Origin: Escherichia phage vB_EcoP_PE007
Reading direction: 5' to 3' (one strand)
DNA: 64,000 bases
Sequence record: OQ938542.1
Positions 43,301 to 61,074 of the stretch are shown in pieces. The notes below the pieces were generated by a model. It did not search any database and was not told where the DNA came from. It saw only the letters and a list, made by a program, of their open reading frames with translations. The translations under genes were made by a program, and so were the position numbers. Every line of letters starts with the position of its first letter. The first letter of the stretch is position 1.

Positions 43301-46300
43301 CAGCTCATCTGACATAACTTCACGGGACATTTTATGAACTTTAATGCCTAATGCCTGAGCCAGTCCAAGCTGGAAGTCAGAGAACGTTTGACTGTTTTCA
43401 TTACTTAAGTCGATGGTAGAGAAGGTTGGAAGGATTGCTTCACGAACCAGCTTACTGGATTGTGGGTTGTTCTTACCAAGCATCTGCATACGACCTACAC
43501 GGGTCATGTTGTAGCCGTAGTGAATAGGTGTATCCAGTCCATTCTCCTGTTCCTTAATTTGATTGATTACACCAAACAAAGAATCATATGCCATGGACAC
43601 GGACAGGTTCTTACCTTCCAGTGATTTAGCAGTATTCACATTAAGCAACTCTGGGGTAAGAGCACCAGCACCCATTAATTCCAGAATGTTGTCACGACCC
43701 AATGCTTCATAGAAGTTAACCATAGGCATATGTACACGAAACTCAGTAGCTTGTTCTGCTTTGAGAGCAGCTTTCTGTTCCGGGGTATTATTAACAGCAG
43801 GGTTACGTAACTGAGTTTGAGCCACGGAAGGAATGTCATCACCCAGATACAATTTCTCTACTGGTTCTAAAAGGACAGTTTCCTCAATAGCAGTAGGGAA
43901 TTTATTAATGGCATCGTTATCATCCAGCTTCTCAATGGTATACAGACCAACAGTCTTATTAGATTCTGGGTCAATCTCAGACACATCTAACATGGACTCT
44001 TTAACTTCACCCATCTCAATAAGGGAAGACAGAATCTCTGTAGCCATTGCCATTGGGATACCCTTGGTATACCCCAAAGGTGCATTAGGATTACGATTCA
44101 AACCCCAATAGGATTCAATCTTTTGAGCTAGTGAGTTAGTAGCTTCAACCAGGGTCTGAGCATTCTCGAAGTCAGCCAGAATACCTTCTGGTAGCAGAGA
44201 TGCTTCCACACCAGTAATAGCAGCTACGTCTTTCATGTCTTTAACAGCAGCATTCTGTGTAGCAGTCAATCGCCATTGCAGACCAGCAAGTACAGCAGTT
44301 TCTAATAGCTGGTCATTGAACTTAAAGGTGTCACCATCTTTCTCTACGATGTTAAGTAACTTACCACCTACCCAACGGTTAGCCTCAGTACCTTCCGCAA
44401 AACGTTTACCAACGTTCTTGTTAGCAAGGAACTTAGCCAGACGGTCAGACAGAGTAGTCTTCAGAGTTTCACCAAACTCAAATAAGTCCTGGTAACGCTT
44501 AATCACATCACTTGTGAGAGCGTTATTTTCTTTTTGAGTAAATGCTTCAAAGCGAGCAGCAGAAGACAGTGCTTTCTTAACATCAGTCAAAGGAGACTCA
44601 GAGCCAATGGTACGAGACTTAGGTTCTTCTGGAAGACTAAATGCTTTAAGGAACTGGTTCGGTGTCTTGTCATTGTTGTAGACAGGGAACACTGTTTCCA
44701 TTTGAGATAAAGGTTTACCACCAACGGTATAGTCTGCTTTCAACTGAGCCAGTGATACTTCTTCCTTCTCTACATTATTGGTATTACGCCCAGACGTATC
44801 TACACCAATCTGAATCAGTGCATTGTTTGCTTCTACGAATGATTGAACAGTATTGAATTGTTCAGGAGTCAGCTTCTGATTATCAAACAGTTGTAATGAT
44901 ACAAATGGTTGCTCACTTCCTTTGTAGAAAGTGGAGCGTACAGCACCAGTATCCAGAGACATATCACGGTAACCATCATGACCAAATACATCAGACAGAC
45001 TGATATGGTCACCATTGGAACCAACAACAGTACCATCATCAAAGAGCCAAGGACTCTCCTTACGGTCACCATACTTATTAAGAGTATCCTGTGAAATAGT
45101 ATTCTCTTTCACATAAGAATCTCTTTCAGATTCAGTAGGCTGTTCAACGGTATCCTGTTTTTCAGATTGGTTCTCAGGTTCTTTTACAGTCTGTGGTTTA
45201 GACTCTTTAATAGTAGGTTCTGTTTTAACAGCTTCACTAACAGAGGGTTTAGTCTGTACAGTAGGGGTAACTGGTTCCTGTTTTGTAACAGGAGTTTCAT
45301 CAACCTGATTCACTGGTTCATTGGTCTGTTGGGATTGAGCAGCATCAAGATTGCCCTGACGGAACTCTTTAACTACCTGGGCGGCAGGCTTGTCCAAACG
45401 TGAATCCAATGGGGTAACTTTCACATGAGAAACATTAAGCTCCGGGTAAGCCGTAGCAAGTGCGTTAGCAATATCAGCTACGGTCTTGGCTTCCAGTCCT
45501 ACTTGCTGGGCAAACTTAACAGACTTGGTATCATACGGATTGACACCGAGGCCAGTACGACTACGTACCCATTCACGCGAGGGAGTAAGAGCCTGATAAT
45601 GGACAGACTTATTCTTATCCGCATTCCCAGAAATCAAATGCTCATTCAACGCTCCGACCTTATTCTGCATGTGCTGGGCGAACTTCATAAAATCGCTCAG
45701 ATAAGCGGAGGCCAAATCGAAGTTACCAGAGTTATACGCAGAACGAATGCGTTTCGCATGTTGCAACGCAGAGTACTGTCCTTCATTAGAACGAGACTCA
45801 TCGGTTTTAATCTGTTTACTAACAATATCTTGAGGACGTAAGCCTAGTTCTTCTGCTTTAGCGTCGAACTCTCGTGCACCCTGTAATAAGGCAGCAGCAG
45901 ATTGCAGGGCAGCACGTTGACGATTCCCCAGTGTAATCTTACCTTCACTTGCATGTTTCAGAACCATGTTCACTGAATCTGCATCCAGCACTTCTGGAGA
46001 TACATCAGCAGCCATAGCAATGTTGTTTGCTTGGGCTTGGTTAGCTTCTTCAGTAGCTTTCAGTTTACCTGCTTCAGCCTGTTCCTGAATCATGGAATGG
46101 ATGGCACGGAATGCACGAAGTACCTTCGGTGTATTCTGAACGTTAGCCATCAGGCCGGAGAATTGGTCTACGATTGCAGCAGCAGGGGAACCTTGTTCCA
46201 GATTAGCCAAAGCACCCGGGTCACGGTTAATGAAGCTATCCATAGACATGATATTGTCATACATCTGGATTGCAGCTTCCATTTGAACGTTAGGGTCTTC

Positions 46301-48055
46301 GGCAGTATTAACCAAGTCAGCCATCTTCTGAATAGCTTCTACACGGTTAGTGGAACCAGAAACAGCTTCACGGATTGCTGGGTTAGTTTGTTCCAATTCT
46401 ACCGGGTCAAACTTCATTGCCTGAGTTAAGTCAGCAGCATACTGGGTAGCAGCAGCTTTCTCTTCTGGAGAAATATCCATTGCATCCACTGCTTCCTGAA
46501 CAGTTGCTTGAGCTTGTTCTGCCTGAGCAGTAGCTTCTTGTGCAGCAGCGTTAACCGTAGCATCAGATACGGGGGATGCTTGTTCATTACGCTTAGCAAC
46601 TTCTTCCCCACGTTGAACCAGGATGTTAGTAATAGGTGAAGCTACTTTTGCTAGTGCCTTACCAGCCAAAGAAGCACCAGCCAGGGTAGTACGTACAGCA
46701 GGACCAACGGCAGCACCAGCAGCCTTAACAGTTGCACCAGGAGCTTGAGCAACTCCAGCAGAACCGAAGCCATACAATGCACCCAGACCAGTTTGTTCAC
46801 CCACACCTTTAAGCAAATCACGCTCAGCATCTACATTGCCATGAATTGCCTTGTTTTGTGCAAACTGACTTGTACCAGACTGGATACCTTCTTCTACAGT
46901 CTCACGCAGCATGTTAGAACCAGCACCAGCCAGTGAACCTACCTTAAGTGGGTTAAGTTCAAACTTGGATACCAGTGGAGCAGTAAGAGCAGCAACTGGA
47001 GCAGTTAAGCCAGCAGCAGTGATACCTGTTTCAGATGCAGTCTGGCGACGTGCTTCTTCAGGAGACAGACCGTCTTTAATATGCTGTTGGTATACAGGAG
47101 ATTTAGCAGCCAGTTCACTGAATGGCATTTCCATAATTTCATTAGCAGTCTGTTGGTATGCACCACCAGCTTCCATACCACCAATTGCTATAGCAGGTGC
47201 AGCAACACGACCAGCAGTCTGTGCAATACGTGCAGGACGATAACCTAATTCAGCAGCTAGGGTAATACCCTTAACAGCTTTATCACCACCTACCATTACT
47301 TTACCAAGTGCAGATACACCACGGATAAGTGGACCACCTGTAAAGAGGGAACCAACACCTTCACTCAGTCCGTCAGAAGCAGCCATACCATTATCAAGTG
47401 TGTTAGCAACAGAATCAAAAGCGTCACGACCAATACGAGACAAGGAGGCAACCAAATCGCTCCCCCCATTTTTGATATCTTGTTCATAGAGCTTCTGGTT
47501 CTTCCGTGCAGAAATCTGGTTCTGATTCTGAACAACTTTACGTGTAGCATTCAGTGCATCAGACTGTAGATTGTGTACACCCTCATTCAACCAATCCATC
47601 CCGGAAGCAATGGTTGCCCCGGCATTATTATTGACCAAACCTGCGCCAAGAGCAGCAATGCCCCCAAGGGTATTAGCAACACCAAGACCAACACCAGAAA
47701 GAGTATCGCCAAATGCTTCTGCGTTAGTACGTTGTTTAGATAAGTCCTGACGTACAACATCAGCAGCATTAGCTCGGCTATTAAGAATCTGTAAACCTTG
47801 CTCATTACCGTACTTATTAATGATTTCTAATGGGGAGGCTTGAGTGAAATCTGCCTGAAGTGAACCTGGTTCGAATGCACCGATTCCAAGATTACCTACT
47901 CGTCCAGTCTGGAGATTGTAAGCATTCTCTGGGGTTAATTGGAAAGGGCTTTGCCCTTGTGCAGCTTGCTTCTGAGAGGTTGCAGTAGAGACATCGACTT
48001 GCTTAGCATTAGTGATGCTGTCTGCGAAACCTGCCAGACGGTCAAATGTTGACAT
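37301..48055 (-). CDS. virion-encapsidated giant RNA polymerase (N4 gp50-like vRNAP)
   Basis: single uninterrupted 3584-codon ORF; ATG at 48055 with AGGAAA RBS (track ORF starts at upstream TTG 48073). Confidence 0.8.
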   Translation of the reverse strand: MSTFDRLAGFADSITNAKQVDVSTATSQKQAAQGQSPFQLTPENAYNLQTGRVGNLGIGAFEPGSLQADFTQASPLEIINKYGNEQGLQILNSRANAADVVRQDLSKQRTNAEAFGDTLSGVGLGVANTLGGIAALGAGLVNNNAGATIASGMDWLNEGVHNLQSDALNATRKVVQNQNQISARKNQKLYEQDIKNGGSDLVASLSRIGRDAFDSVANTLDNGMAASDGLSEGVGSLFTGGPLIRGVSALGKVMVGGDKAVKGITLAAELGYRPARIAQTAGRVAAPAIAIGGMEAGGAYQQTANEIMEMPFSELAAKSPVYQQHIKDGLSPEEARRQTASETGITAAGLTAPVAALTAPLVSKFELNPLKVGSLAGAGSNMLRETVEEGIQSGTSQFAQNKAIHGNVDAERDLLKGVGEQTGLGALYGFGSAGVAQAPGATVKAAGAAVGPAVRTTLAGASLAGKALAKVASPITNILVQRGEEVAKRNEQASPVSDATVNAAAQEATAQAEQAQATVQEAVDAMDISPEEKAAATQYAADLTQAMKFDPVELEQTNPAIREAVSGSTNRVEAIQKMADLVNTAEDPNVQMEAAIQMYDNIMSMDSFINRDPGALANLEQGSPAAAIVDQFSGLMANVQNTPKVLRAFRAIHSMIQEQAEAGKLKATEEANQAQANNIAMAADVSPEVLDADSVNMVLKHASEGKITLGNRQRAALQSAAALLQGAREFDAKAEELGLRPQDIVSKQIKTDESRSNEGQYSALQHAKRIRSAYNSGNFDLASAYLSDFMKFAQHMQNKVGALNEHLISGNADKNKSVHYQALTPSREWVRSRTGLGVNPYDTKSVKFAQQVGLEAKTVADIANALATAYPELNVSHVKVTPLDSRLDKPAAQVVKEFRQGNLDAAQSQQTNEPVNQVDETPVTKQEPVTPTVQTKPSVSEAVKTEPTIKESKPQTVKEPENQSEKQDTVEQPTESERDSYVKENTISQDTLNKYGDRKESPWLFDDGTVVGSNGDHISLSDVFGHDGYRDMSLDTGAVRSTFYKGSEQPFVSLQLFDNQKLTPEQFNTVQSFVEANNALIQIGVDTSGRNTNNVEKEEVSLAQLKADYTVGGKPLSQMETVFPVYNNDKTPNQFLKAFSLPEEPKSRTIGSESPLTDVKKALSSAARFEAFTQKENNALTSDVIKRYQDLFEFGETLKTTLSDRLAKFLANKNVGKRFAEGTEANRWVGGKLLNIVEKDGDTFKFNDQLLETAVLAGLQWRLTATQNAAVKDMKDVAAITGVEASLLPEGILADFENAQTLVEATNSLAQKIESYWGLNRNPNAPLGYTKGIPMAMATEILSSLIEMGEVKESMLDVSEIDPESNKTVGLYTIEKLDDNDAINKFPTAIEETVLLEPVEKLYLGDDIPSVAQTQLRNPAVNNTPEQKAALKAEQATEFRVHMPMVNFYEALGRDNILELMGAGALTPELLNVNTAKSLEGKNLSVSMAYDSLFGVINQIKEQENGLDTPIHYGYNMTRVGRMQMLGKNNPQSSKLVREAILPTFSTIDLSNENSQTFSDFQLGLAQALGIKVHKMSREVMSDELTKALEGKLKPAVDMMVEFDKSGHLPANAVDILKTSLGNDKSFVALMALMEYARYLNSDDRANFNTPLYVEADGVTNGPINAMVLMTGGKFTSDWIKNTAKGGLFFGKAGKTMNEHHSHDDSVDLYEASTNSLQQALNELRNTYRNNVPVTNQMKHLQKLMDLFIKDFNLNEDGTLDLKRGIAKNPLTITIYGSGARGIAGKMVSAITDTIYERFSDVLQARAADPSISPAMAMFGKEAASEADAQAMLDTFLTSMEALTGNVPVMRKGELSIQQVDGALTGKLDPQKFTVSGNALKNLQENMLHLFVEPMRTGIRNTVGEGLMYSTENLQKATQIQSLVLQDMFQQAVQAKLAEKEKDPTWKKGDFLTQKELNEIQASLSPLAPMIETGSQTFYIAGSENTDVANQVLATNLDDRMRVPMIIYAPSQAGVAGIPFMTIGTGDGMMMQTLSTMKGAPKNTLKIFDGMNIGINDITDASRKANEAVYTSWQGNPIKNVYDSFAKFMKNVDFSKLSDETKQAIAKSALEYDQREGATDDLLRVGAEQIERNLRNIALGVDIRHKVMDQVQVTVDQMAAVGAPYVNNGKISLEGLTVDQQVAKLNELFDAELNKRRDAVRAAKAEPVKEVPAMEQVGRVLKSGVRLLSNAAITKLAKEMSPEQQAVLKEIQKSLAAKDYKVVYGTPSQLDAYAIEKNITRPAPEDIEAAEAGNAYGWTNFEDKTIYLVTPSLETLVHELVHASTFESVLAHYEGTPNEAVQNIEDLMNQFRALDVKDESPAVREAYANALNTINGHLSNGFIEPAMAKAAALNEYMAWGLTNRELISKQKKTTALKTMVQAVYEAIKRLVFGRKKAPANADDMFSGLLFNSAVVMRGQAPTTAVAKDTTLFHNKAYGDNTRLEELGKTFDKLITNYIGSEPVQQVIRKGKFSDAVVNATKVTRDVQAHGFTMNMQEQRLFTNIVAALATEAAINPAAMARAQEYYTHVTKNLTVESFMADPDSTNPADRYYAQQKFDTIMGANNIEFDAQGRSSLLPTFVGLAMVSEEVRKVLADIPVMKADKKSGNTVDAMLTNIGTAAMASLNARVAGDTKATNVQEGMDALAQTIMQTSLNAESFYDSVATPTGNAIDRANQYLVDSIDVLSTRALEGAREVAANTKNPLVKGAAHAAQLIAAIATEKNGAIVAEGVMAAMNQGKVWQPFHDLVNDLTGRTKSNASVYDLIKAVRAQVQADRQQFREHLPTTIASKFSRKLTNDEWKAMHTGMGKTDLAVLRDTMSLAEIRDLLTDQKIVDREVNKLEADLQKQAGRNWPLINRKSKQLAQYMINGTVGNNLLRNATAISRLLGERKTTRSVVDVAQLDKLITLYALEAMNKTDREMLSSLAQTEIEGMDFATSYLVGQRKDEMAKAKSDTRATLNQYKGYIPTENKQGVNLIVAEDSQFADLIEKSYVRLGTYQGSSANRGPARSYYFAPVQAQAPFSQGILQNVRNTAGGVDLGTGFTMGTMVAGRITDKPSVDRITKALARGERGNEPLLPVYDANGNVVAYEQSIDPNMLKHIEGENHLARAIGVWRGRQVEEAKAQRFNDMLIENLHSMYENDIKMSASNKSQYVNLLGSKLDPVTADALKLMNSETRQKAESLFGPGELWVRRDMLNDALGYRAASVGDAWSGNSRWSPETLDTFKKAMLGVFGNRAYKYVMGGENLVQNLVKEAKTLIVVKSVVVPAVNFLANLYQMIARGVPVKNIAKSIPQKTAEINQYLKSRLRQVDAEAELRAATNPNQIRKLKAEIQSISDSHKRLSIWPLLEAGEFSSIADAGIGRDDILITEGKLHEYMDKLADKLPKSVRNAGRYALITKDTALFQGIQKTVEYSDFIAKAIIYDELTQRKGKTREEALGRVTEEFINYDRLPGRFRGYMESVGLMWFYNFKIRSAKVAVSMIRNNPVHAAIAMLAPTPTMFGNVGLPIQDNIFSIAAQGNLGYSFGFGQGLRAHTLNPWLNLTN

Positions 48056-48118
48056 AGCATGTTTCCTGTTCAAACTTATATCGTATATAGGTAACTTACT
48101 CTACAGTAAGCCAGTTAA

Positions 48119-48149: not shown

Positions 48150-50114
48150 TTACCGATTTTGTCTGGGTTGCATATACTCAGGCAGTCCTTGTGCCTGACG
48201 TAAGTACCGTGCAGCACGTTCTTCATCTTCCTTGGCTCGTGCTCTATCCACACTAGCCTGTGACTGGAAACCTCTTGGAGCCAGGTTAGCTGGGTCAGCC
48301 TGTACTTGTGCCTGTGCAGCTTGGAGCATTGCAGCAGCTTTAGTAACAGCCTCCTGACGTGCAGGTAAAAGAGCAGTAAGACCGCTTTGTCCGGTGTTAA
48401 TCTTATTCTGGGTATTTGCCAGTGCAGCTACAGCAGCATCATATGCAGTCTGTGCCGCCTGAATATTCTGCATAGCTTGAGCACGACCAAGGTTACGAAC
48501 ACTACCTTCCAGTGGTTCACCCCGTTTCACACCCTCGATTAACTGTTCTACCTGACGGTCATTAAGACGCATACCATTACCTGCTTCATTGGTAATGAAT
48601 GGGTTAACTGCATCAATAGCACGACTAATATAACCCTCTGGTACACCAGTCTGTGCACGTTGCATAACAGCAGCAGCCATAGCAGGTGACATATTCCCAC
48701 GTTGAGAAATATCGTTCAGTCGATTCAGTACCCAGTTACGGTCAGCACCTTTAAAATCACCCTCCAGCAAACGATTAGCAATCTCACCTACTGGGGTATT
48801 ATCAGTGACAGTACCAAGGAAGTCTGTGTTAAGACTACCAGTGTTATCCTGCATAGAACGAGTACCAATCATACCCTGAGCCAGAGTAGATACTGCCTGA
48901 TTACCTTGATTATTCTGAACCATAGCAAGTGGGTCAGCCCCTACTTCAGCTTGAGCAATAACAGGTTTAATCTGTTCCCAAGTCATATCCTTATAAGCAC
49001 CTGGGGTAGAGTTAGGCAGAGCAGCCCAAGTATCTTTAAGGTTACCGTTCTTACGAGACTCGAAGATAGCCTTACCAATCTTATCCTGGTTCTCAGGAGA
49101 AAGAGGCTGGCTTTGCCAATCTGAACCAAGAACTTTGGGAGCGAAGTCTTTCAGAGTAGCTTGGTTAATCTGGAATGCACCAACAGGTGAAGCACCTTGA
49201 TTCGACTTCATACCATCCTGGTGTTTAATTACATCACCAATACTCATTTGAGTAATAGGGGTAGATGTACCGGCAAACTGGTAAGTAACATCGTAAGGGG
49301 AACCCTGACGAGTACCAGCAGTGCCAGGAGCAGACGCAGCACCTACGCCATTGCCGTATACACCCGGGTAAGTACTAGCCAGTAAACTCTGTAAACGTGC
49401 CTGTGCAACTGGGGACAAGTTCTTACTGTATGCTTCTGCCAACAGACGGGCATCATTAGGGTTCTCAGCACCACGGGTAATCTGTGACATTACACCCATA
49501 GCTGCCTGACTGTCAGCATCATTACGTTGAGCAACACCTAAATCAAAACGATTCTGTGCCTGATTAATAGCCTGACCACCCTGACCTTGTAGACGACCCA
49601 TCATCTCCAGTTGTTGGTCAGCAGGGAGTGCAGACAGTGCATCACGGGTCTGACTTAATGCAGCATTAATACGGTTCTGGTCACCGGACTGATAAGCCTC
49701 AGACAGTAAACGAATAGCCGGGGAAGCATTATCTAATGCAGTGTTAGTATCCTGTAAACGACCAAAGCGATAAGCAATGTAGTCATTGGTTCCCTGCTGT
49801 CCTTGTTGTGTCAGTAATGTACCTGCTCGTTCATCCAGGTTTTGGAGGGTACGTTGATTTACCAGTGAAGGATCAACCCCCTGAAACAGTGCACCAGATG
49901 CCAAAGCATTACGGTACTCATTCGGGTCTTGGTACTGCATAGCATTCATCATGACGGCATTGCCAGCCTCCTGCTTGGCAGCGTTCTGGAAATTACCCAG
50001 TGCATCACTTAAGCCGGAGGTGGCGTTACCAATCATGCTACCAAATGTGCGAATGCTGTCACCAACTCCAGAGAAGTTAGGTGCATCAACATTTCTCCAC
50101 GTTATCTGAGCCAT
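48150..50114 (-). CDS. virion protein (N4 gp51-like position)
   Basis: 654 aa, Gln/Ala/Asn-rich; AGGAAA RBS. Confidence 0.5.
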   Translation of the reverse strand: MAQITWRNVDAPNFSGVGDSIRTFGSMIGNATSGLSDALGNFQNAAKQEAGNAVMMNAMQYQDPNEYRNALASGALFQGVDPSLVNQRTLQNLDERAGTLLTQQGQQGTNDYIAYRFGRLQDTNTALDNASPAIRLLSEAYQSGDQNRINAALSQTRDALSALPADQQLEMMGRLQGQGGQAINQAQNRFDLGVAQRNDADSQAAMGVMSQITRGAENPNDARLLAEAYSKNLSPVAQARLQSLLASTYPGVYGNGVGAASAPGTAGTRQGSPYDVTYQFAGTSTPITQMSIGDVIKHQDGMKSNQGASPVGAFQINQATLKDFAPKVLGSDWQSQPLSPENQDKIGKAIFESRKNGNLKDTWAALPNSTPGAYKDMTWEQIKPVIAQAEVGADPLAMVQNNQGNQAVSTLAQGMIGTRSMQDNTGSLNTDFLGTVTDNTPVGEIANRLLEGDFKGADRNWVLNRLNDISQRGNMSPAMAAAVMQRAQTGVPEGYISRAIDAVNPFITNEAGNGMRLNDRQVEQLIEGVKRGEPLEGSVRNLGRAQAMQNIQAAQTAYDAAVAALANTQNKINTGQSGLTALLPARQEAVTKAAAMLQAAQAQVQADPANLAPRGFQSQASVDRARAKEDEERAARYLRQAQGLPEYMQPRQNR

Positions 50115-50126
50115 GGTGGTTTCCTA

Positions 50127-50570
50127 TTAACGGGTTAGTTTATTGGCTGCAATATAAGCATCAGCCGAAGACTGGTCACGATTTTCTGCTGTAGCACGGC
50201 TACGAGCACGGTCTTCCAGTGCAGTGTTATAAGACTTAATCTGGTTATTCAGGTTAGTGTTAGTAACACTCTTAGTAAAGTTCAGCTGGTCTTTGGCTAA
50301 CTTGTTAGCCTGGAAACCACTATAGATACCAGCTAAGGAACCAAGTGCACCGAGTCCTAGTTGGAAGGTGGGTACATTCATACCCAACTGATTAGCTGAA
50401 CCAGACAAGAAGGAAGTAGGGGAGGCTACTCCTGTACCTGCATTCATACCAATAGCTGCACCCGGATTGTAGTTCATAGCTGGGGTATTAAAATTCTGAT
50501 TGTTATTAGACATCCAAGACATAGCAGCTGGCTGTGGGGTTTGGTTGCCTGTTAAGAATGACAAATCCAT
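50127..50570 (-). CDS. virion protein (N4 gp52-like position)
   Basis: ATG at 50570 with AGGAG RBS (track ORF starts at TTG 50591); 147 aa. Confidence 0.45.
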   Translation of the reverse strand: MDLSFLTGNQTPQPAAMSWMSNNNQNFNTPAMNYNPGAAIGMNAGTGVASPTSFLSGSANQLGMNVPTFQLGLGALGSLAGIYSGFQANKLAKDQLNFTKSVTNTNLNNQIKSYNTALEDRARSRATAENRDQSSADAYIAANKLTR

Positions 50571-50583
50571 AGGGATTCTCCTG

Positions 50584-53238
50584 TTAAACAAGGTCAGTAT
50601 TAAGAGTCATATCAGAGTAGCTTCCAATCATGTTTAAAGACATGTCAGCTATATCCGAACCAGTCATGAGAGTACGTGAGAGGAAAGAATCCATCGACTC
50701 CATTGACACAAATTGCATAGGGTCAATTACACCCTGCCCAGCAGTACCAAACATCTCTTCATACTGCTTATTGATTGCCATCATATCAGTATTGTACTGC
50801 TGCATTACTTTCTCTGCTTTCTGAATAGTAGCAGCCGTAGATGCATTAATATACTGGCTAATACCATTACCTACTGAACTGGTAAGCTGCATGATGTTCT
50901 GAGCATTCATCATTTCACTGGCTAAGGTAGATAAGGATGAACCAGTAGATAGAGCAGTACCAACATTCATAGCTACCATTGAAGCAACAGCAGCAATGAT
51001 AAAACCTAGCTTATCACCAAAGAGTGAAGTGGATACTTTAGTGATAATAGATACCAGAATCATTGCAGCAATGGCGTTTGCTACAGCACCTACTATTACA
51101 GCAGCTAATCCAACAAAACCGAGTGACGCCCCAACTGCTCCATATGCCCCAAGTATACCTGCACCACCAGTACCCATAGTGAATACGGATACAACGACAG
51201 CAACCACAACAACCACAATCTTAAAGGCAGATGTTTGATACCACTTCTGCTTAACCTTCTTATATGAGTTCATCACCAAGTAAGAACAGGCAGTAGATAA
51301 CTGAGTACTACGAACCAGTGACATTGAACGGTAGATGTTAGTATGTAGTGGAATAATGAACCCACTCTCCTCTGCATCACCCATTGCTTCGGCAACATCA
51401 ATATGCACTGACTTATTCTTATATACCCTGTTATTGTGATTTAGACCCAGTACTCTAAGTTTACGATAAGTGTTATTACCATCCTGCCAAAGCAGTTCAT
51501 ACTCCTGCATAGAATAGAATGTAGTGGTAACCTCTAACTTCTTAGCTGAACCGGAGTTACTAGCAGTTCGTATGTTCTTGCGAGTAAGAGTTATATCCCC
51601 TGCATACCTGGCTCGAAGTTGTCCTTGCTTAGCACCAGACCATGCTTGCCCTGAGTGGGTAGTTTCAGATACGTAATTCCAACCAATGGTCATGTCATAC
51701 TTGTAATGCTTATTACTATGTACCCTAAATTCTCTCTTAGGTATGACTGGGTATTCTGGCAGTGGTGGAGGAGTTCCAATAGTGTGCCCTTCAGTCCTAT
51801 TCCACCATTCTACATATGCATCAACTGCATCATTAGCTGCCTGATAACCTGCAATCACTGCCTCCAAGGTTGGATAGGTTGGGTCAGGTGGGAATGCTTC
51901 AGTAGCCATCTGAAAGAAACGGTAGATGTATTCCTTAGCAGTATCTTCAGGAGTATTAAGAGATACGCCAAATGTGCCATAAATGTACTGAATATCACCT
52001 ATATCATCATTCTTCTTAAGCTCTGTTACTACCTTATCAATTTTTCCACCGGTAGCTTTATAAAGAGCTTTCTTACAGTATGGATAGATTGGGTCATTCT
52101 CTACCCATTGTTTATCGTTCCTGATTGGAATAAATGGATAGAATCGATTATCGGTAGCCTCAGTATCGAACAGTGAGTCTAGTGCAACGTTACCAGAGTT
52201 CTGCTTATAGATAAGCATCTTAGGTGTACCAACAGCAGTCATCTCTGTATCTGTACGAGTAGTCTGGGAGGAATACTTACGAACCAGTGTCTCTGTGGTT
52301 GTAGTGATTGTATCGGTACGAGTAACACCACCACCTATATCAACTACATTGGTAGTTACAGAAGTACTGGATTGAATCTCACCAAACTTTTTATGAGTCA
52401 TTACCCTGTCAGATACAACTACAGTTACGTCATCAGGTTTTTCAGTGAATCCTCTACGGTAAACCTTAATGTAAGAGTTCCAGTTATCTACACTTGGTTC
52501 GGTGACAGTACTGTCTTCATCTGGTCTACCATCAGAATAAACAGAATGAGTCTGTATAGTCTTAGTGAGATTAGTTGTATTAGCTGTTGTATCACTTGAA
52601 ACAGTAGTCCATAACAAAGTAGAAGGTAAGTCATCCTCATCATCATAGACAGTAGTCGGTCCCTCTACCGGTGGATTGATAGACGGGGACTTATAGAATG
52701 AGTAATCAGCATAGAGATACAAAGCACCTGGTTCAAAGTTAGTAGGTGTGAATTTAATAGTAGAACCACCATCCAGGGAGATCATAGTAATTTCATTAGT
52801 ATCTTCATTGATGTCTATGTCGAATCGTTCCATGATTCGACTAGGAGCATTTTCATAAAGATATTGGTCACACCATTGCTCAAAGTCAGCAAAGCCAATT
52901 TCTGCTGCCTGAACATAGACAGACTCTCCAGCAGGTGGTGTAATTTGACCCTCTATAACAGTAGGGTCAATCTTAGCCAATACACCCAACGAAGAACCAG
53001 CCATACCAACTTCTGAATCATAGTGGTTCTTACTCCAGCTGGAGAACAATCGCATACGAATACCAGGTCCATTCAGATAACTATCAGAGATAGTGTCTGC
53101 CATAGTGAATCCTGTATTGGAAACAATGTTACCGATGACTACAGTCTTCATATAGTTAGGACGTTTGTGTATATCCCCTGCCATGTTATAGACAGAGGAT
53201 GCTACGTATACTTTAGTCTTCCCACTGAATAAGCCCAT
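50584..53238 (-). CDS. large virion protein with Gly/Ala-rich hydrophobic segment (candidate ejection/internal protein, N4 gp53-like position)
   Basis: 884 aa; internal ~60-aa hydrophobic stretch IVVVVVAVVVSVF...AAVIVGAVANAIAAMILVSII. Confidence 0.5.
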   Translation of the reverse strand: MGLFSGKTKVYVASSVYNMAGDIHKRPNYMKTVVIGNIVSNTGFTMADTISDSYLNGPGIRMRLFSSWSKNHYDSEVGMAGSSLGVLAKIDPTVIEGQITPPAGESVYVQAAEIGFADFEQWCDQYLYENAPSRIMERFDIDINEDTNEITMISLDGGSTIKFTPTNFEPGALYLYADYSFYKSPSINPPVEGPTTVYDDEDDLPSTLLWTTVSSDTTANTTNLTKTIQTHSVYSDGRPDEDSTVTEPSVDNWNSYIKVYRRGFTEKPDDVTVVVSDRVMTHKKFGEIQSSTSVTTNVVDIGGGVTRTDTITTTTETLVRKYSSQTTRTDTEMTAVGTPKMLIYKQNSGNVALDSLFDTEATDNRFYPFIPIRNDKQWVENDPIYPYCKKALYKATGGKIDKVVTELKKNDDIGDIQYIYGTFGVSLNTPEDTAKEYIYRFFQMATEAFPPDPTYPTLEAVIAGYQAANDAVDAYVEWWNRTEGHTIGTPPPLPEYPVIPKREFRVHSNKHYKYDMTIGWNYVSETTHSGQAWSGAKQGQLRARYAGDITLTRKNIRTASNSGSAKKLEVTTTFYSMQEYELLWQDGNNTYRKLRVLGLNHNNRVYKNKSVHIDVAEAMGDAEESGFIIPLHTNIYRSMSLVRSTQLSTACSYLVMNSYKKVKQKWYQTSAFKIVVVVVAVVVSVFTMGTGGAGILGAYGAVGASLGFVGLAAVIVGAVANAIAAMILVSIITKVSTSLFGDKLGFIIAAVASMVAMNVGTALSTGSSLSTLASEMMNAQNIMQLTSSVGNGISQYINASTAATIQKAEKVMQQYNTDMMAINKQYEEMFGTAGQGVIDPMQFVSMESMDSFLSRTLMTGSDIADMSLNMIGSYSDMTLNTDLV

Positions 53239-53239
53239 A

Positions 53240-54076
53240 TTAGTTCAGCCCGTTGTTAGTCTTCAGCTTGGTCAAAATGGTATCAATACTTGCGTTAGTG
53301 AAACCATTAGGAGGATTCAAGCCTTCATCAATAGTCTTCTGTGTAATCCATGCATCAGTAAACAACTTAGATGCTTTGACTTCTGCATCACGTTGGTAAG
53401 AAGTAATCTGTTGAGAGTACAACTCTTTCTGTTTACCTACAGAACCAGTAACAGTAGCACCATCACTACGAGTATCCAGTGTCTGTGCACGTTGTGCTTC
53501 TGTCTGCTCAGTAAGCAATTTAAGCTGTTGAGGTAGCATCTGATTAGCATTAAACAATGCAGCACAATACGTCTCAGACTCAGTAGCAATCTTCATCTTA
53601 GTAAGAGCGTATTCACTCTTAGCAGACAATGCCTGAATCTTAGCCAGTACAAACTGAGCCTTAGAAGTAGCCAGTTGAACACGAGCAGTAACTGCCTGAA
53701 TCTGTGCCATAGCAGCAGCCCAGTATGCCTGGTCACGTCCAAGTAAGAACTGAACAGCATTACTCATGCATGATTCCATCATAGCAATGTATGCTTTGGT
53801 ATATTCACCACCAGTAATACGGTTAGCTTTAAACTCAGCTTTAAGGTGATTGTGAGCAGATTCCATTAATGCATCAAACGTACCACTGCCTCCTACTTCA
53901 CGGGTAGTAAGAGATTCATTGGTTATTTTAGTAATAGCCCCAAAGATTGTAGAATCATCTCCACCAGGGATATCCCATTCAGGACCAGACATATCAATAT
54001 CAGGAAGGGTAAAGTCATCACCCTTAGTTAACTCTTCTAGGAGTCGGTTAGCTTCTACCTCAGCAGAACAAGACAT
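53240..54076 (-). CDS. virion structural protein (N4 gp54-like position)
   Basis: 278 aa from second ATG with AAGAGGA RBS; helical Ala/Gln-rich. Confidence 0.45.
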
Positions 54077-54152
54077 AATCATTCCTCTTGGTTCAAAAAG
54101 AAACGGCCCACGGAGTTACCCCAGTGAGCCGTGTTGAACTGTAGCTTATACG

Positions 54153-54794
54153 TTAATCGTTAAGGCTACCAGCAGCAATCTGTGCTTGAGCCAGTTGAGC
54201 TAATTCAGCTTCAGTCAACGGAGGCAGTACTTCAATGGAGAACTCACGTGCTTCTGTTGCACGGATGTCCGGTAAGCCATTCTTACCTTTACGAGTCGTA
54301 ATGTTGATGAACTTGCGTTCTTTAAGGAACTCGTAGATACAGTACGGAATATGATAACCATTGTCGGTTACTTCACCGAATGGAACAAACTTACGTACAG
54401 TACCCATATATTCGTTAGCTACGGTGATAATTTCACCCGGCAGGTCTTTCTTCTTAGGGTCAAGGTTCTGGATACGTACACGAATCAGTCGAGTCTGTTC
54501 TGCACGAATCTTCTGACCCAGGGTCATCTTCTTAACGCCAGCTTCTTGTTTTTCGCCAAGTGGGTTAACAGCAGCTTCTTCAACTACTGGTTCATCTTTT
54601 ACTTGTGCAGCTTCAATCTTCTCACGAAGCTTCTCAACGGAAATGTTGTTAGAGAACTTGATATTCATCAACGTTGCACGTTGCTTAAGAACTTCAAGTT
54701 CGCTAGGCATTGCAATATCGTTAACGGTATCTTCGTTGCCCTGTACGTTCACTTCTACGTCAGTGGTCGGTTTATCGTTAATGCTCATGTTCAT
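54153..54794 (-). CDS. virion structural protein (N4 gp55-like position)
   Basis: 213-aa ORF downstream of capsid gene; start may be ATG 54788. Confidence 0.45.
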   Translation of the reverse strand: MNMSINDKPTTDVEVNVQGNEDTVNDIAMPSELEVLKQRATLMNIKFSNNISVEKLREKIEAAQVKDEPVVEEAAVNPLGEKQEAGVKKMTLGQKIRAEQTRLIRVRIQNLDPKKKDLPGEIITVANEYMGTVRKFVPFGEVTDNGYHIPYCIYEFLKERKFINITTRKGKNGLPDIRATEAREFSIEVLPPLTEAELAQLAQAQIAAGSLND

Positions 54795-54861: not shown

Positions 54862-56064
54862 TTACAGAGGAGCAACAGTCTTAATCAGAGCCAGACGTTC
54901 TGGGCGTTTAACCAGGATACCATAGTACCACTTGATAGAACTGAAGCCAGTTTCACCATACGGGTCGTTACGGTCAGCAGTTTCTTTACCAGGCATCTTA
55001 GTCATGATGGTGAACTTAACAGACTTACCATCAGTCTGGAAGCCAATGGTAGAGAAGGAGTCGTCACCAACTACCAGCATCGGGAATACGTCGTAGTGTT
55101 CCTGACCAGATACCATAGAAGTACGATAACCCGGGTTAGTAGTAACCTGAGCACCAGCACCTGCCCAATGAAGCATCTCAGGAACCTGGATAATACGGAA
55201 CTTATCAATACAACCGATTTCACCATTCATCAGAGTACCAGCATCAGCATAGTGCTGAACTTCGATGAATGCTTTATTACCAAACAGGTCTTTCATCGCT
55301 TTCAGTTCTGGAACCAGTTCAGAACCAACGTACATTACACGAGTACCACCAAGTACTTTGGTATCTGTCAGTTTAGAACCAGTGATGATAGTAGTCTGGG
55401 TCGGAGTACGGTTCTCAGTAAGAATCTGGTCAAGACGCATCAGGTTCTTATAAGAAACTACAGACGGGGTAGAACCTTCACCAGTGATGGTTGCATCAGA
55501 GACAGCAGCACCTGCATACAGTACAGTACCAGCAGCAGCCAGCAAGTCTTTCTGGAGAACAGCTTCAGTCAACTGTACAGCACCGTTCATCAGTTCACGA
55601 GACAGGTGTTCTTTCAGCTGGTCATCGGAATCAAAGTCCAGAGACTCTTGGGTAAATTCGTAGAAGAAGCCGAACTTATGAATGGAACCTTCACGAGCCA
55701 GACGAGTGAAGCCTACACGGTTAACACGACCACCATTCTCTGACAGCAGAGGCAGTTTAGAGGTGATGTTACCAACGTCTTTGGAAGAACCGTACAGGTT
55801 ACCGTTAACGATGGTAGCACCATTAGCATCAATACCCTGGTCGTTAATGTTCTTATCATCGAGCAGAGGAACGTACTCGTACACCTTAACAGTCTTGCCG
55901 TAGTTCTTCGGCATGTTAACGGTGTTAGCCAGAGGCATAAAATACTGGTCTTTACGAGACTGAATAATAGCCTTCTTCAGCCAGTAATAGGTATTCATCT
56001 GGTCGGAACCAGCACCATCAATGCTAGATTTCTGACCGTCAATTGGAGCGTTATAGTTTAACAT
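54862..56064 (-). CDS. major capsid protein (N4 gp56-like)
   Basis: 400 aa between portal/scaffold-like genes and tail genes; followed by strong hairpin; size matches N4 MCP. Confidence 0.6.
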
Positions 56065-56080
56065 ATCATCTCATTCCTGT

Positions 56081-57301
56081 TTAAAGACTACCCGGTACTG
56101 GGAGTTTAGCGAAATCTTCATCACTCATAGCGAGTGGGTTTACAATAGGTGTTGCTTTACGTGTAGCAGCCCGATTAAGGGAAGCTGCTTTAGCTTGCTC
56201 ATTGTTAGCCAGAGTCTGCTTAGGTTGTGCTACACGCACTACCGGCTGAACTGCTGGTTTAACTGCTTGTACTGGTTCAGGCTTAGCTACTTGGTTAAAT
56301 GCTCCTTGTTGTGCAAGAAGGTTACCAACGTAGTTATAAGCCTGAATAAACGGAGTACCTACCGGAATCTGACCTAACACCTGAAGACGATTCACTTCAT
56401 TAGCAATGGTGTCATAAATACCATTCTCACGCTGTTCGTGAATGGTGTGGAGTAAGCCACGATTCTGATAAAGAGCATCTTTACTGGCAGCATCCCATGT
56501 CGAGCTAATAACACCTAATGTAGCTTGTCCTTCTTGAGTAGACTTTAAGTCGTCAATTTCGGTTGCAAAATCTGCTTCGGTGTCTGTAACACGGTGTTTG
56601 CCACCCTGGTAGTTAATTTCCTCTTCTGGATTAAAGTCCAGAGGATCTGTACCAGAGTCTTTCAACAACTTTTTAATGGCTTCAGGATTCTTCTTATCCA
56701 GGTCAATCAGGAAAGAAAGTTTTTCCTCATCCATTAAACCGTTGTTCTGTAGCATCAGCATTACCTTACGGTACGGCTGAAGTTCTTGCATCTTACGAGT
56801 ATAGTTAGCACCCATCTGCATCAGGCTAATGGCCTCCTCCGGAGAACGGGGAGTAATCATTTTGCCGTTAGCTTTAAAAGGAGCCATCAACTTCTCATAA
56901 CCTTCCTTATAGTTGAAGTCAGCAGGCAGACCTTCAGACTGTTTGCCTTCTTCTTTCTGTTCCTGGCCTGGTTCAGCAGTAGAAGGTTCAGCTTCAGTAA
57001 TCGGCTTACCGTTACTATCAACTTCTGTGTCAACAACTTTATCATCAACTTTATCAGAAGTTAAAGAATTTGCTGAATCATCTTCATCTGCGTCAGTTTC
57101 GGGGGAGGTTTCTTCGGTTGGTAGTTCTTCAACAGCAGGGGTGTCAACTTCTTCATCAGGAGTCTGTACGCCGTTGGTTTCTGGGTTGTTCTGAGTGGAA
57201 GTATCTTCCTCAGCAATAATAGCTGGGGCTTCCATATTCAGAATCTCATCATCCGACATTGCGAGAATGTCGGAAGCTGTGGTTGCAGCTTCCGTAGTCA
57301 T
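56081..57301 (-). CDS. acidic head-assembly protein, candidate scaffolding protein
   Basis: 406 aa, acidic N-terminal third, helical; lies between portal and capsid genes. Confidence 0.4.
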   Translation of the reverse strand: MTTEAATTASDILAMSDDEILNMEAPAIIAEEDTSTQNNPETNGVQTPDEEVDTPAVEELPTEETSPETDADEDDSANSLTSDKVDDKVVDTEVDSNGKPITEAEPSTAEPGQEQKEEGKQSEGLPADFNYKEGYEKLMAPFKANGKMITPRSPEEAISLMQMGANYTRKMQELQPYRKVMLMLQNNGLMDEEKLSFLIDLDKKNPEAIKKLLKDSGTDPLDFNPEEEINYQGGKHRVTDTEADFATEIDDLKSTQEGQATLGVISSTWDAASKDALYQNRGLLHTIHEQRENGIYDTIANEVNRLQVLGQIPVGTPFIQAYNYVGNLLAQQGAFNQVAKPEPVQAVKPAVQPVVRVAQPKQTLANNEQAKAASLNRAATRKATPIVNPLAMSDEDFAKLPVPGSL

Positions 57302-57320: not shown

Positions 57321-57665
57321 TTATTCGTCTTCAGGTTCAGCACGAACTACATCGAGTTCTTCTTCTACCTGTAGAATAACGTCAGCTTCACGTTCGCCCA
57401 TACGAATGGCGAGGTCGAGCCAACGACGTAAGTGACCAGCAGCTTGAGCCATGTTGAGTGCATCTGCACGATTGTTAGCTTCAAGCAGTGGGTCACCAGA
57501 CTCTTGCACGTAACGTGCACAATCTTCTACACAGAACTGGCGAAGGATTACTTTACGGAACAGTGGATTCTCCAGAAGTTTACGTACATCCTCTGCGTGT
57601 GCAACTGCACCTTTAGCAGCTTCCAGTCGATGTTCCAGTCCTGCGATTGTTGATTCTTTACTCAT
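57321..57665 (-). CDS. hypothetical virion-module protein
   Basis: 114-aa ORF between portal and scaffold-like genes. Confidence 0.45.
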   Translation of the reverse strand: MSKESTIAGLEHRLEAAKGAVAHAEDVRKLLENPLFRKVILRQFCVEDCARYVQESGDPLLEANNRADALNMAQAAGHLRRWLDLAIRMGEREADVILQVEEELDVVRAEPEDE

Positions 57666-59951: not shown

Positions 59952-60458
59952 TTATTCCTGTTCAAAAAGTTTACGGTCAGCCTGGATCTGTTTACCCAAC
60001 TCAATTAGTTGGCTGTCACGGAGTCTAACAGTTGCCCTGAGTTCTTCAACCAAACGTCTGCCTTCTTCAAGATTGTTGTCGAGTCTGGCTGCATGGCTTG
60101 CAAGACTTCTGCACTCAAAGGTTCCGGTTTCGGCTTGACGTTTATATACCGATGCTCGTCTTTCAGACTGTTGCATCCGGCTGTCATAATCACTGCTAAC
60201 GCGAGCAAGCTCGCTTGCGTAATTACTCTCAGCCGTCTGCAACCGGGAAGTGAGTAACCCGACTTCATAACTATGGTTTCTTTGGAGAGCATTGTATTTG
60301 TCCTGTAATTTTTGTGTTGCCTTTTGGTCTTCAACCTTTTGGGCATCCCACTTCTTTTGAACAGTAGACTGTCCGTTGGAATTACCCCAAAAGTAAATGG
60401 TGGCCCCGAGGACCACCACTAGAAGATAAGGCCAACCTTTAGAGATTAGCATCTTCAT
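59952..60458 (-). CDS. i-spanin (Rz-like)
   Basis: ATG 60458 with GGAGG RBS; N-terminal TM ([21 protein letters not shown]) then coiled-coil periplasmic domain; contains embedded lipoprotein ORF. Confidence 0.55.
60005..60268 (-). CDS. o-spanin (Rz1-like lipoprotein) embedded in i-spanin gene
   Basis: alternate frame inside 59952-60458; signal peptide plus lipobox-like ...[12 protein letters not shown]; Pro-rich mature part. Confidence 0.5.
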   Translation of the reverse strand: MKSGYSLPGCRRLRVITQASLLALAVIMTAGCNSLKDEHRYINVKPKPEPLSAEVLQAMQPDSTTILKKADVWLKNSGQLLDSVTAN

Positions 60459-61074
60459 TACATGCCTCCAGTGGCACATTGCCTATTCGGTTAGCTATCC
60501 AACCATACGTAAAGTCTGGCATGTTTAATGAGGTGTAGTGGTTCAGTTGTTTAGCATCTAGTAACTTAATCATTACCCGACATGCTGCAACTTTGCCTCG
60601 TTTTTTCTGTAATGCTTTATATGCATTAACAGTACTTACACCGACTTTACCATCAACCTGTATTTTAGGGTAGTCTTTGCCATCACGGGACATTTCATTA
60701 AGAGATTGCTGTAACCACTTAGCCGGACGAGTTACACCAGTGTTAACACCGGCATCTACCAGCTTGTGTGTTACAGCAGGAGATATATCAGCGAAGGCTA
60801 CGAAGTTAGGCTTAAGTACGTAGTCATCGATGTATATCTCAGCAGCCATCTCTTTAGATAAACCCTTCATAGAACCATCCCAGCCGTACTCAGTAGCCAG
60901 AACTTCTTTATGGGATTTAGCTACAGATTGGGTAATTCCATGATTAGTTTCCCCACCTGGGTCACGAGGATTATTTACATAACCCCCTTCCATATAAAAC
61001 ACTGCCCCCAGGATAGCAGCGACAACTCCTCCCACTGCACCACCTTTCGCAGCAAGTTTCTGTTTAGCTTTCAT
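60439..61074 (-). CDS. endolysin, GH108 N-acetylmuramidase with N-terminal signal-anchor and C-terminal peptidoglycan-binding region
   Basis: 211 aa; EGGYVNNPRDPGGETNHGIT is the GH108 hallmark; N-terminal Gly/Ala-rich weak TM GGAVGGVVAAILGAVFY. Confidence 0.7.
   Translation of the reverse strand: MKAKQKLAAKGGAVGGVVAAILGAVFYMEGGYVNNPRDPGGETNHGITQSVAKSHKEVLATEYGWDGSMKGLSKEMAAEIYIDDYVLKPNFVAFADISPAVTHKLVDAGVNTGVTRPAKWLQQSLNEMSRDGKDYPKIQVDGKVGVSTVNAYKALQKKRGKVAACRVMIKLLDAKQLNHYTSLNMPDFTYGWIANRIGNVPLEACNEDANL

Follow-up and report, generated by a model that had tools for sequence, protein, structure and literature searches.

A probable N4 gp53-type tail plug in Escherichia phage vB_EcoP_PE007, with a hydrophobic stretch predicted to cork the tail tube

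The minus-strand gene at 50584-53238 of Escherichia phage vB_EcoP_PE007 (OQ938542.1; by the window we mean the whole stretch of 64,000 nucleotides that was analysed) very probably encodes an N4-family tail plug, whose long Gly/Ala/Val-rich hydrophobic stretch would serve as a cork in the tail tube. The plug assignment rests on orthology to phage N4 gp53 at 55% identity; where the plug sits, its knot, its single copy and its persistence on emptied particles are results obtained with N4. For this phage itself we establish orthology, conservation, helical propensity and synteny, and the rest of the N4 picture, together with the order of release, is carried over. The original prediction was of an ejected virion protein forming a trans-envelope channel for the genome and the virion RNA polymerase (vRNAP); it correctly placed the protein at the step of genome and vRNAP delivery, whereas the channel itself was not borne out. 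The hydrophobic stretch is already explained by the N4 plug published in 2026, and no new kind of system is involved.

Results

The open reading frame list and its translation give an ATG-initiated, minus-strand frame of 884 aa at window positions 50584-53238, which confirms the frame first proposed and supplies the strand that had been left unstated (Table 1). Residues 1-883 align with residues 1-883 of PDB 9YFT chain FA, 'Gp53' (phmmer, E = 0, 1062 bits), and a tblastn search with N4 gp53 recovers the gene over its full length, across 890 columns; on these alignments the 884-aa protein is a full-length ortholog of the N4 gp53 tail plug, within the N4 gp53/DEV gp74 tail-plug family of the Schitoviridae. 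Its homologs are plug sequences only, and no homology was found to the ejection proteins (N4 gp51/gp52, DEV gp72/gp73), whose homologs are the two neighbouring products. The only PHROG match is phrog_2220 (E = 0), listed as 'unknown function', and Pfam and NCBIfam searches with the 884-aa protein returned zero matches. A protein of Escherichia phage PD38 is 99.7% identical to it, and the window is that of a G7C/Bp4/PD38-like coliphage of the N4 family (Gamaleyavirus). Family members keep annotations such as 'putative 4 transmembrane helical domains containing protein', 'putative membrane protein' and 'TMhelix containing protein'. Two plus-strand open reading frames inside the region (50996-51238 and 51655-52176) were regarded as arising mechanically from the gene on the opposite strand.

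Table 1. Window coordinates of the plug gene, its predicted parts and its neighbours (residue numbers are those of the 884-aa protein).
Feature	Coordinates	Strand	Basis
N4 gp53-type tail plug CDS, 884 aa	50584..53238	-	Matches to PDB 9YFT, N4 gp53 and phrog_2220
N-terminal part of the predicted 'hydrophobic knot', residues 29-56	53071..53154	-	Ungapped to N4 29-56, 71% identity
Probable 'beta-feather', residues 211-334, long antiparallel beta strands	52237..52608	-	AF2
C-terminal part of the predicted knot, residues 674-720; core of the Gly/Ala/Val stretch	51079..51219	-	N4 670-716
Residues 721-775, hydrophobic zone continued, two further transmembrane-length segments	50914..51078	-	KD19
Residues 776-884, conserved helical C-terminal tail, presumed in the tail-tube lumen	50587..50913	-	AF2 and conservation
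Tail tube, N4 gp54 ortholog, 12-mer closed by the plug	53240..54082	-	66% identity to N4 gp54
gp52-like ejection protein, 147 aa, ATG 50570	50127..50570	-	56% identity to N4 gp52
gp51-like ejection protein, 654 aa	48150..50114	-	50% identity to N4 gp51
Virion RNA polymerase, gp50-like, mechanical ORF 3590 aa	37301..48073	-	

The neighbouring genes, matched to N4 and PDB sequences, show that the plug gene follows that of the tail tube directly and precedes the gp52/gp51/vRNAP cassette. The minus-strand order is gp54-like tail tube, plug, gp52-like, gp51-like and vRNAP, and gene order from gp50 to gp59 is identical to that of N4. The position first described, between the vRNAP and tail-tube genes, was therefore right as to order, with the amendment that the gp51-like and gp52-like genes intervene before the vRNAP. 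The tail-tube gene, immediately upstream, matches 9d80_C 'Tail protein' (8e-149), N4 Gp54 (9lc0/9yf4/9yft, 4e-123) and the DEV gp75 tail tube (8e-20), and the junction between its stop and the plug start reads TAA-t-ATG; the single base between them is consistent with coupled synthesis of the two proteins. On the other side, the gp52-like product matches the '16.5 kDa protein' of 9yf4 (1e-43) and the DEV 'N4 gp52-like protein' 8vxq (7e-5), and a GGAG Shine-Dalgarno motif lies 8 nt ahead of its ATG at 50570. Residues 1-357 of the gp51-like product match the '66 kDa protein' of PDB 11mn (1e-129). The vRNAP start annotated in PD38 is about 20 codons later than that of the mechanical frame.

The stretch of about 60 small hydrophobic residues that drew attention to this protein is real. 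Residues 674-733 form 60 aa in a row without D, E, K or R, and the top 60-aa window has a mean Kyte-Doolittle (KD) value of 2.12, which was reached in 0 of 20,000 shuffles of the same protein (best 60-aa KD: mean 0.69, maximum 1.67); a charge-free run of at least 60 occurred in 5 of 20,000. Residues 674-720 comprise 47 aa in a row without D, E, K, R, H, N, Q or P. At residues 680-740, G/A/V account for 54% of the sequence (23% in the whole protein) and G/A/V/I/L/M/F for 80% (42% in the whole protein). Three windows, 666-698, 695-737 and 739-765, have KD19 values above 1.6 (peak value 2.59). They amount to three to four transmembrane-length segments, where room for two or three had been suggested, and extend the hydrophobic zone beyond the length first given, with hydrophobic sequence totalling about 95 residues. 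Segments of transmembrane length show that the sequence is compatible with an integral membrane protein rather than that it resides in a membrane. By KD19 the 884-aa protein is the sole strongly hydrophobic product of the tail and ejection gene block (maxima of the gp51-like and gp52-like neighbours, 0.72 and 1.08, respectively). Matches of residues 663-737 to the TRIC channels 5h35 and 5wtr (phmmer against PDB, E = 0.3-0.4) were rejected as compositional, hydrophobic sequence aligning with hydrophobic sequence.

As judged from the alignments, the hydrophobic feature is a family trait rather than a product of chance. The C-terminal module was found in 986 cluster representatives, and among the best 150 of these it is C-terminal, either in proteins some 740 or 890 aa long or in shorter fragments; in all 127 of the 127 full-length representatives found with the module, the KD19 maximum is at least 2.01 and falls at a relative position of 0.64-0.81. 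Down to 33% overall identity, G697, G703, G707, A713 and N721 are invariant along with about ten near-invariant positions, and distant members have a mean KD of 1.94 at the knot segment 674-720. The C-terminal tail has invariant residues of its own (E847, R855, T856 and G860). The frequency of the top residue is 0.65 in the knot; in the core and feather, which are exposed and share 39-49% identity with N4 gp53, it is 0.44-0.50, and the beta-feather region is the least conserved (25% identity among distant members). The invariant Gly/Ala/Asn pattern, taken with the conservation of the knot, is thus better accounted for by an element packed within the structure than by a membrane span of a generic kind.

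Structure prediction and Foldseek recovered the expected plug fold, a globular core with an N4-type beta-feather. The AF2 core has a pLDDT of about 80-92, and the predicted feather strands (211-234, 241-269, 272-302 and 305-334) have values of about 85-92; in a Foldseek search of a PDB library that did not hold 9YFT, the top match of the model was 9ZE4_M, from the DEV tail-gating complex (E = 1.2e-17, probability 1.00). The two-part knot and C-terminal luminal tail were found at the level of sequence, residues 674-720 aligning ungapped with N4 670-716 at 66% identity, with N721 directly after, and residues 721-775 showing 75% identity to N4 and KD19 above 1.6 at 722-741 and 739-765. From a 50-sequence alignment, AF2 predicted residues 665-884 to be helical at a pLDDT of only 30-59 (helices 779-830, 849-856 and 860-879 at 30-58) and did not reproduce the knot fold in three dimensions. 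The original prediction was to fall if the segment proved to be a buried beta-core; what we find is helical, with six short helices in N4 and helices at low confidence in AF2.

Foldseek also gave weaker PDB matches, to secretins and to beta-pore-forming toxins of the aerolysin type (aerolysin, epsilon toxin and Mpp75Aa1.1, the last at E = 9.5e-4). For most of them the probability is at most 0.14 and the query-normalised TM-score below 0.1, and one (6lhz) has a probability of 0.92 but a TMq of 0.07; we do not regard them as homology, and the long beta strands in the feather are their probable cause. The only matches in BFVD beyond the family, to maturation proteins of ssRNA phages, were of low probability and were likewise set aside.

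Neither of the known plug holders, the gp64/gp65 sheath of N4 or the gp56-gp55-gp54 fibre of DEV, was found. Searches by tblastn with N4 gp64 and gp65 (E <= 1e-3) and with DEV gp54, gp55 and gp56 (E <= 1e-2) gave nothing in the window or in positions 47000-72213 of PD38, the closest complete genome, a search that could miss remote homologs of the holders. Given that no N4 or DEV holder homolog is detectable, the gating complex, trigger and anchoring must differ here.

Discussion

In N4, gp53 is a single-copy (monomeric) tail plug seen by cryo-EM (PDB 9YFT), in which residues 29-56 and 670-716 form six short alpha-helices, a 'hydrophobic knot' that corks the gp54 12-mer tail tube; the model ends at residue 724, and the last ~160 residues are unresolved within the tail lumen (Bellis et al., Nat Commun 2026, PMC13434306). 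The plug is held by domains D9-D10 of gp65 together with gp64 (the sheath), and is seen on full and on empty particles. The authors propose that it is displaced laterally, with a 'ripcord' role, and that it re-binds the tube via the knot after ejection; the empty particles had released their DNA in vitro, and the authors themselves call retention of the plug in real infection unproven (PMC13434306). That our protein is a virion protein, as first suggested, agrees with the detection of N4 gp53 by LC-MS and its modelling in the virion map (PMC13434306), and with the detection of the 96 kDa G7C-like ortholog, Moo19 gp70, by virion mass spectrometry (PMC11654681). The likeness to N4 gp53 extends to length (884 versus 885 aa), sequence, gene position, gapless alignment of both knot segments, a predicted secondary structure that fits the core and beta-feather layout, and a conserved C-terminal tail; the difference is that N4's gp64/gp65 sheath holder has no tblastn-detectable homolog in this phage lineage.

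By analogy with N4, one plug copy would cap the distal end of a dodecameric gp54-like tail tube, with its N-terminal ~660 residues (globular core and beta-feather, the part that folds confidently) on the outside. The knot, of short glycine-mediated helices packed together from residues 29-56 and 674-720, would be wedged in the tube base, where it would hold back the DNA, which is under pressure, and the ejection proteins of the lumen; the remaining ~160 residues, comprising two more hydrophobic helices and the conserved helical tail, would extend up the lumen. Upon receptor engagement the plug would shift sideways, and withdrawal of its knot and C-terminal tail would free the gp52-like and gp51-like proteins, vRNAP and DNA.

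The channel originally predicted would require instead that the protein leave the virion and that its hydrophobic helices form a trans-envelope conduit for DNA and vRNAP. The three to four transmembrane-length segments (KD19 up to 2.59), the annotation of relatives as membrane or TMhelix proteins, the standing of the protein as the only strongly hydrophobic one in its block and the adjoining ejection cassette would all suit such a role. However, the N4 ortholog is present in one copy, lies mostly outside the tube and persists on emptied particles, the first ~47 residues of the stretch would be the cork inside the tube, and the invariant Gly/Ala/Asn pattern indicates specific packing. In N4, moreover, it is to gp51, gp52 and the N-terminal domain of vRNAP that the channel across the envelope has been assigned, with a vRNAP conduit of ~35 Å, and recombinant gp51 and gp52 form pores in bilayers (PMC13434306); N4 gp51 and the DEV gp52-like protein are both in the PDB as multi-chain assemblies, of 10 (11mn) and 9 (8vxq) chains, respectively, and the orthologs of the proteins so assigned are encoded here by separate neighbouring genes. 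One copy with three or four helices is too little to line a conduit of that width, and we consider the channel very unlikely. Podophage ejection proteins (N4 gp50/gp51/gp52, DEV gp71/gp72/gp73) do resemble the plug in belonging to the same late block, in being virion-associated and in serving genome delivery, but they are multi-copy and are expelled from the capsid or lumen that stores them, whereas the N4 plug is single-copy, mostly external and still on emptied particles. Segments as hydrophobic as those found here (KD19 of 2.5-2.6) are normally captured by the host membrane-insertion machinery, and the plug might thus be inserted in the inner membrane of the infected cell, with tail assembly starting at the membrane and burial in the tube secondary. 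This we regard as extremely improbable: signal peptide and lipobox context are both absent, the one-base spacing of tube and plug and the gp52-like gene's own Shine-Dalgarno motif suit immediate shielding by the tube, and work on N4 (PMC13434306) and DEV (PMC12892993) gives no hint of membrane-bound tail assembly.

A plug that corks the tube might also have a second use, in which the knot and the two helices after it enter the outer membrane, behaving like a viral fusion peptide or the hydrophobic C-terminus of T5 pb2, the inserted segment anchoring the tube and seeding insertion of the gp52/gp51 channel. Of the ~95 hydrophobic residues, the counterpart of N4 670-716 is stated to be knot, the N4 model ending at 724, and residues 721-775 beyond it are as conserved as the knot; the luminal C-terminal tail would lie ahead of all ejected material, and the neighbouring ejection proteins are far less hydrophobic (Kyte-Doolittle). 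[quoted passage not shown] The present protein shares with them a hydrophobic, helix-prone polypeptide in the distal tail lumen, but its luminal segment is covalently joined to an external monomeric plug and is not part of a length-determining trimer, and no tape-measure similarity was found in sequence or in Pfam, NCBIfam and PHROG profiles. Against this proposed second use, re-binding of the plug via its knot, as the N4 authors propose, argues that the knot does not stay in a membrane, in vitro at any rate; we think the second use quite unlikely. Since this lineage has no detectable sheath or DEV-type fibre and the core and feather evolve fast, the plug may itself be an active sensor: the exposed core and feather would sense a trigger at the outer membrane, and the released knot and ~160-residue tail would insert, anchor the tube and nucleate the gp52/gp51 channel. 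We hold this to be unlikely also.

The reading of the protein as a tail plug has a practical value for annotation, in that it and hundreds of its relatives, whose present labels are 'hypothetical', 'membrane protein' or 'TMhelix containing protein', could become tail plug, and phrog_2220 could be renamed likewise. In Pseudomonas phage DEV, the homologous plug gp74 (PDB 9ZE4 chain M, seen at 8.5 Å) is held by the gp56-gp55-gp54 fibre (PMC12892993), of which no sequence homolog was found here. DEV gp74 has a homologous core and C-terminal hydrophobic module (phmmer E = 6e-18), and its gene likewise lies beside that of the tail tube; it differs in being 740 aa long, in having no beta-feather and in sharing only ~24% identity over the C-terminal 280 aa. 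In Moo19, the tail tip has a weak, unmodelled plug-like density (PMC11654681).

Results

The gene at 50584-53238 is an ATG-started open reading frame for an 884-aa protein on the minus strand, the plus-strand reading being ridden with stops. Near the C-terminus of its product lies the sequence FKIVVVVVAVVVSVFTMGTGGAGILGAYGAVGASLGFVGLAAVIVGAVANAIAAMILVSIIT. Asp, Glu, Lys and Arg are absent from 60 consecutive residues (674-733), His, Asn, Gln and Pro are also absent across 674-720, and Gly, Ala and Val make up 54% of residues 680-740 versus 23% of the whole protein. Measured against 20,000 shuffles of the protein itself, the mean Kyte-Doolittle value of the best 60-residue window (2.12) was never exceeded (shuffle maximum 1.67; 0/20,000 above), and a charge-free run of at least 60 residues appeared in just 5. 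The original prediction of a Gly/Ala/Val-rich hydrophobic stretch of ~60 residues is confirmed, is statistically solid by this comparison, and was if anything understated: the zone extends to about residue 765, with the Kyte-Doolittle mean over 19 residues (KD19) above 1.6 over 666-698, 695-737 and 739-765, amounting to three to four segments of transmembrane length. On this scale the protein (KD19 maximum 2.59) far surpasses the rest of the tail and ejection block in hydrophobicity. The products of the two genes at 48150-50570, putative channel formers, reach only 0.72 (gp51-like) and 1.08 (gp52-like) and have no classical transmembrane segment by KD19, which is odd because their orthologs in phage N4 behave as detergent-dependent membrane proteins.

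A phmmer search of all PDB chains matched the protein to 9YFT chain FA, "Gp53" (E = 0, residues 1-883 to 1-883), and next to 9ZE4 chain M, "N4 gp53-like protein" (E = 6e-18). The former belongs to the "tail-gating complex" of N4 (Bellis et al., Nat Commun 2026; PMC13434306), in which tube, sheath and plug have 12:6:1 symmetry and gp53, the plug, lies mostly external to the tail tube, its core gripped by domains D9-D10 of the sheath protein gp65. The homologous plug of phage DEV, gp74, is without the beta-feather of long antiparallel strands that protrudes from N4-type plugs and is held by a gp56-gp55-gp54 fibre (PMC12892993). The founding member of the family has thus been solved, and the hydrophobic stretch corresponds to a feature explained in its structure. 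Residues 29-56 and 674-720 align without gaps on N4 29-56 and 670-716, which form the "knot" of six short helices corking the tube, and the first 47 residues of the stretch are accordingly the counterpart of the knot's C-terminal half in N4. Beyond them, hydrophobic residues 721-775 and the tail at 776-884 fall opposite the portion not resolved in the N4 lumen. Identity to N4 gp53 is 39-49% over the exposed core and feather, whereas the terminal and luminal parts share 61-89%.

Gene order agrees, the window's vRNAP-to-portal block (see the table) being arranged identically to N4 gp50 to gp59, and tblastn with N4 proteins gave identities of 50% (gp51), 56% (gp52), 55% (gp53) and 66% (gp54). The region is 97% DNA-identical to Escherichia phages PD38 and Bp4 (Schitoviridae, Enquatrovirinae, Gamaleyavirus), and the plug shares 99.7% identity with a "hypothetical protein" of PD38. 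A single base separates the tail-tube stop from the plug start (TAA-t-ATG). In the mechanical ORF list the gp52-like gene begins at TTG 50591, which would give an 8-nt overlap with the plug gene. Almost certainly, translation instead starts at ATG 50570: this codon lies 13 nt past the plug stop, has a GGAG Shine-Dalgarno 8 nt upstream, and yields 147 aa, as annotated in PD38 and in line with the alignment to N4 gp52.

Genes of the tail, ejection, capsid and lysis region in the window
Feature	Coordinates	Strand	Product and matches
vRNAP (gp50-like)	37301-48073	minus	3590 aa, mechanical ORF
gp51-like	48150-50114	minus	654 aa; N4 "66 kDa protein" gp51, PDB 11mn
gp52-like	50127-50570	minus	147 aa; N4 "16.5 kDa protein" gp52 and DEV "N4 gp52-like protein" in PDB
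gp53-like plug gene	50584-53238	minus	884 aa
gp54-like tail tube	53240-54082	minus	280 aa; PDB matches N4 Gp54 and DEV gp75 tail tube
gp55-like	54153-54794	minus	213 aa
Major capsid protein	54862-56064	minus	400 aa
gp57-like	56081-57301	minus	406 aa; phrog_2120
gp58-like	57321-57665	minus	114 aa
Portal	57679-59949	minus	756 aa
Rz-like spanin	59952-60479		adjoins endolysin
Endolysin, N-acetylmuramidase-like	60439-61074	minus	hydrophobic N-terminal segment, residues 7-26 (KD19 1.78)
Holin	61064-61390		adjoins endolysin
Tailspike	61885-63999	minus	704 aa; body matches CBA120 tailspike protein 4, PDB 5w6h, E = 0

Two proteins in this block call for comment. The family of the gp57-like protein is named "tail length tape measure protein", as are its counterparts in PD38 and Bp4; this label is doubtful because the phage is short-tailed and the gene lies between those for capsid and portal. 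Residues 506-627 of the gp51-like protein weakly match positions 126-246 of the 457 in the NCBIfam NlpC/P60 RipA model (E = 7e-5; 22 bits versus a cutoff of 625); we suspect that this reflects coiled-coil or compositional similarity and not a peptidoglycan hydrolase domain.

An AlphaFold2 model of the plug built from the alignment (mean pLDDT 73) is confident over the first ~660 residues, among which four very long strands (211-334; 52237-52608) are taken as the probable beta-feather, while residues 665-884 are predicted helical at pLDDT 30-59. In Foldseek, with a PDB library older than 9YFT, the top match was 9ZE4_M of the DEV tail-gating complex (E = 1.2e-17, probability 1.00), and BFVD matches were uncharacterised podophage proteins of the plug family, some labelled "TMhelix containing protein". 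Those matches also reveal that the gene is deposited in pieces in some close relatives, such as Shigella phage pSb-1 (653 aa and 246 aa) and Bp4 (441 aa, 100% identical), probably through frameshift errors or mis-annotation. Weak matches, at very low query-normalised TM-scores, to aerolysin-type beta-pore-forming toxins (Mpp75Aa1.1, aerolysin, epsilon toxin, Bombina aerolysin-like protein 6lhz) and to ssRNA-phage maturation proteins probably reflect merely the long twisted strands.

Conservation of the hydrophobic module extends to its sequence and is not limited to its character. Across 50 aligned plugs reaching down to 33% identity, G697, G703, G707, A713 and N721 are invariant, and G694, L696, V702, G710, G717, A720, A722, A724, A725, G741, G745, I747 and G766 nearly so; the top-residue frequency in members sharing less than 50% identity is 0.65 for the knot and 0.69 immediately ahead of it, compared with 0.44-0.50 over the exposed core and the feather. 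Searched alone, the C-terminal 230 residues retrieved 986 representatives of 50%-identity clusters (364 at E < 1e-30), the best 150 of which carry the match C-terminally in ~740- or ~890-aa proteins or in shorter fragments. Each of the 127 new representatives that are full-length has the hydrophobic zone, its KD19 maximum being at least 2.01 and lying at relative position 0.64-0.81.

Discussion

The gene at 50584-53238 very probably encodes the tail plug. Orthology, conservation and helical propensity were seen here directly; where the plug sits, in how many copies, and that it stays on emptied particles has been shown for N4 (PMC13434306), and we infer that the same would hold for this phage. 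Residues 29-56 and the Gly/Ala/Val stretch would jointly form a cork inside the tube base, leaving the other hydrophobic helices, and the conserved tail that ends the protein, in the lumen. The N4 authors proposed that receptor binding displaces the plug laterally and that its C-terminus is a "ripcord" freeing luminal gp52 (PMC13434306); here, receptor-triggered sideways displacement would likewise withdraw the luminal segments and free ejection proteins and DNA.

The original prediction was right that this is a virion protein, as LC-MS of N4 (PMC13434306) and mass spectrometry of Moo19 gp70 (PMC11654681) show for relatives, that it takes part in delivery, and that the stretch is helical. An ejected trans-envelope channel, by contrast, does not accord with an N4 ortholog that is monomeric, lies mostly outside the tube and is visible on full and emptied particles alike, the pore formers being gp51 and gp52 (PMC13434306), whose orthologs are the adjacent genes. 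Invariant glycines recur every 3-6 residues, a spacing that suits tightly packed short helices and agrees more closely with the six of N4 than with two or three long spans of membrane. The plug might also insert into a membrane secondarily, after unplugging; we think this improbable, and grant it some room because the plug far exceeds both putative channel proteins in KD19 maximum and because the modelled knot takes in only about half of its hydrophobic zone. As for gp51 and gp52 of N4, the abstract places gp51 in the outer-membrane complex and gp52 in the periplasmic tunnel, whereas the discussion and the Fig. 8 legend reverse the two (PMC13434306); we therefore cite them solely as jointly forming the channel, and annotation transfer from that paper needs care over these roles.

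Interest now centres on what becomes of the knot and tail during infection and on what holds and triggers the plug in sheath-less Gamaleyaviruses. Neither N4 gp64 and gp65 nor the DEV gp54, gp55 and gp56 fibre had a tblastn match in the window or in the rest of the PD38 genome (47000-72213), so that both known plug holders appear to be without a detectable sequence homolog in this lineage; at the Moo19 tail tip there is just weak, unmodelled density (PMC11654681). In PD38 the lysis genes are followed by a tailspike, a G7C-gp66-like fibre and a gp67-like adaptor. The tailspike of the window (61885-63999) has ~170 N-terminal aa matching the G7C gp63.1-type tailspike (4oj5) and the N-termini of other Schitoviridae spikes; it looks like a modular spike swap. 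The hydrophobic N-terminal segment of the endolysin fits the SAR-endolysin/holin lysis system lately reported for N4.
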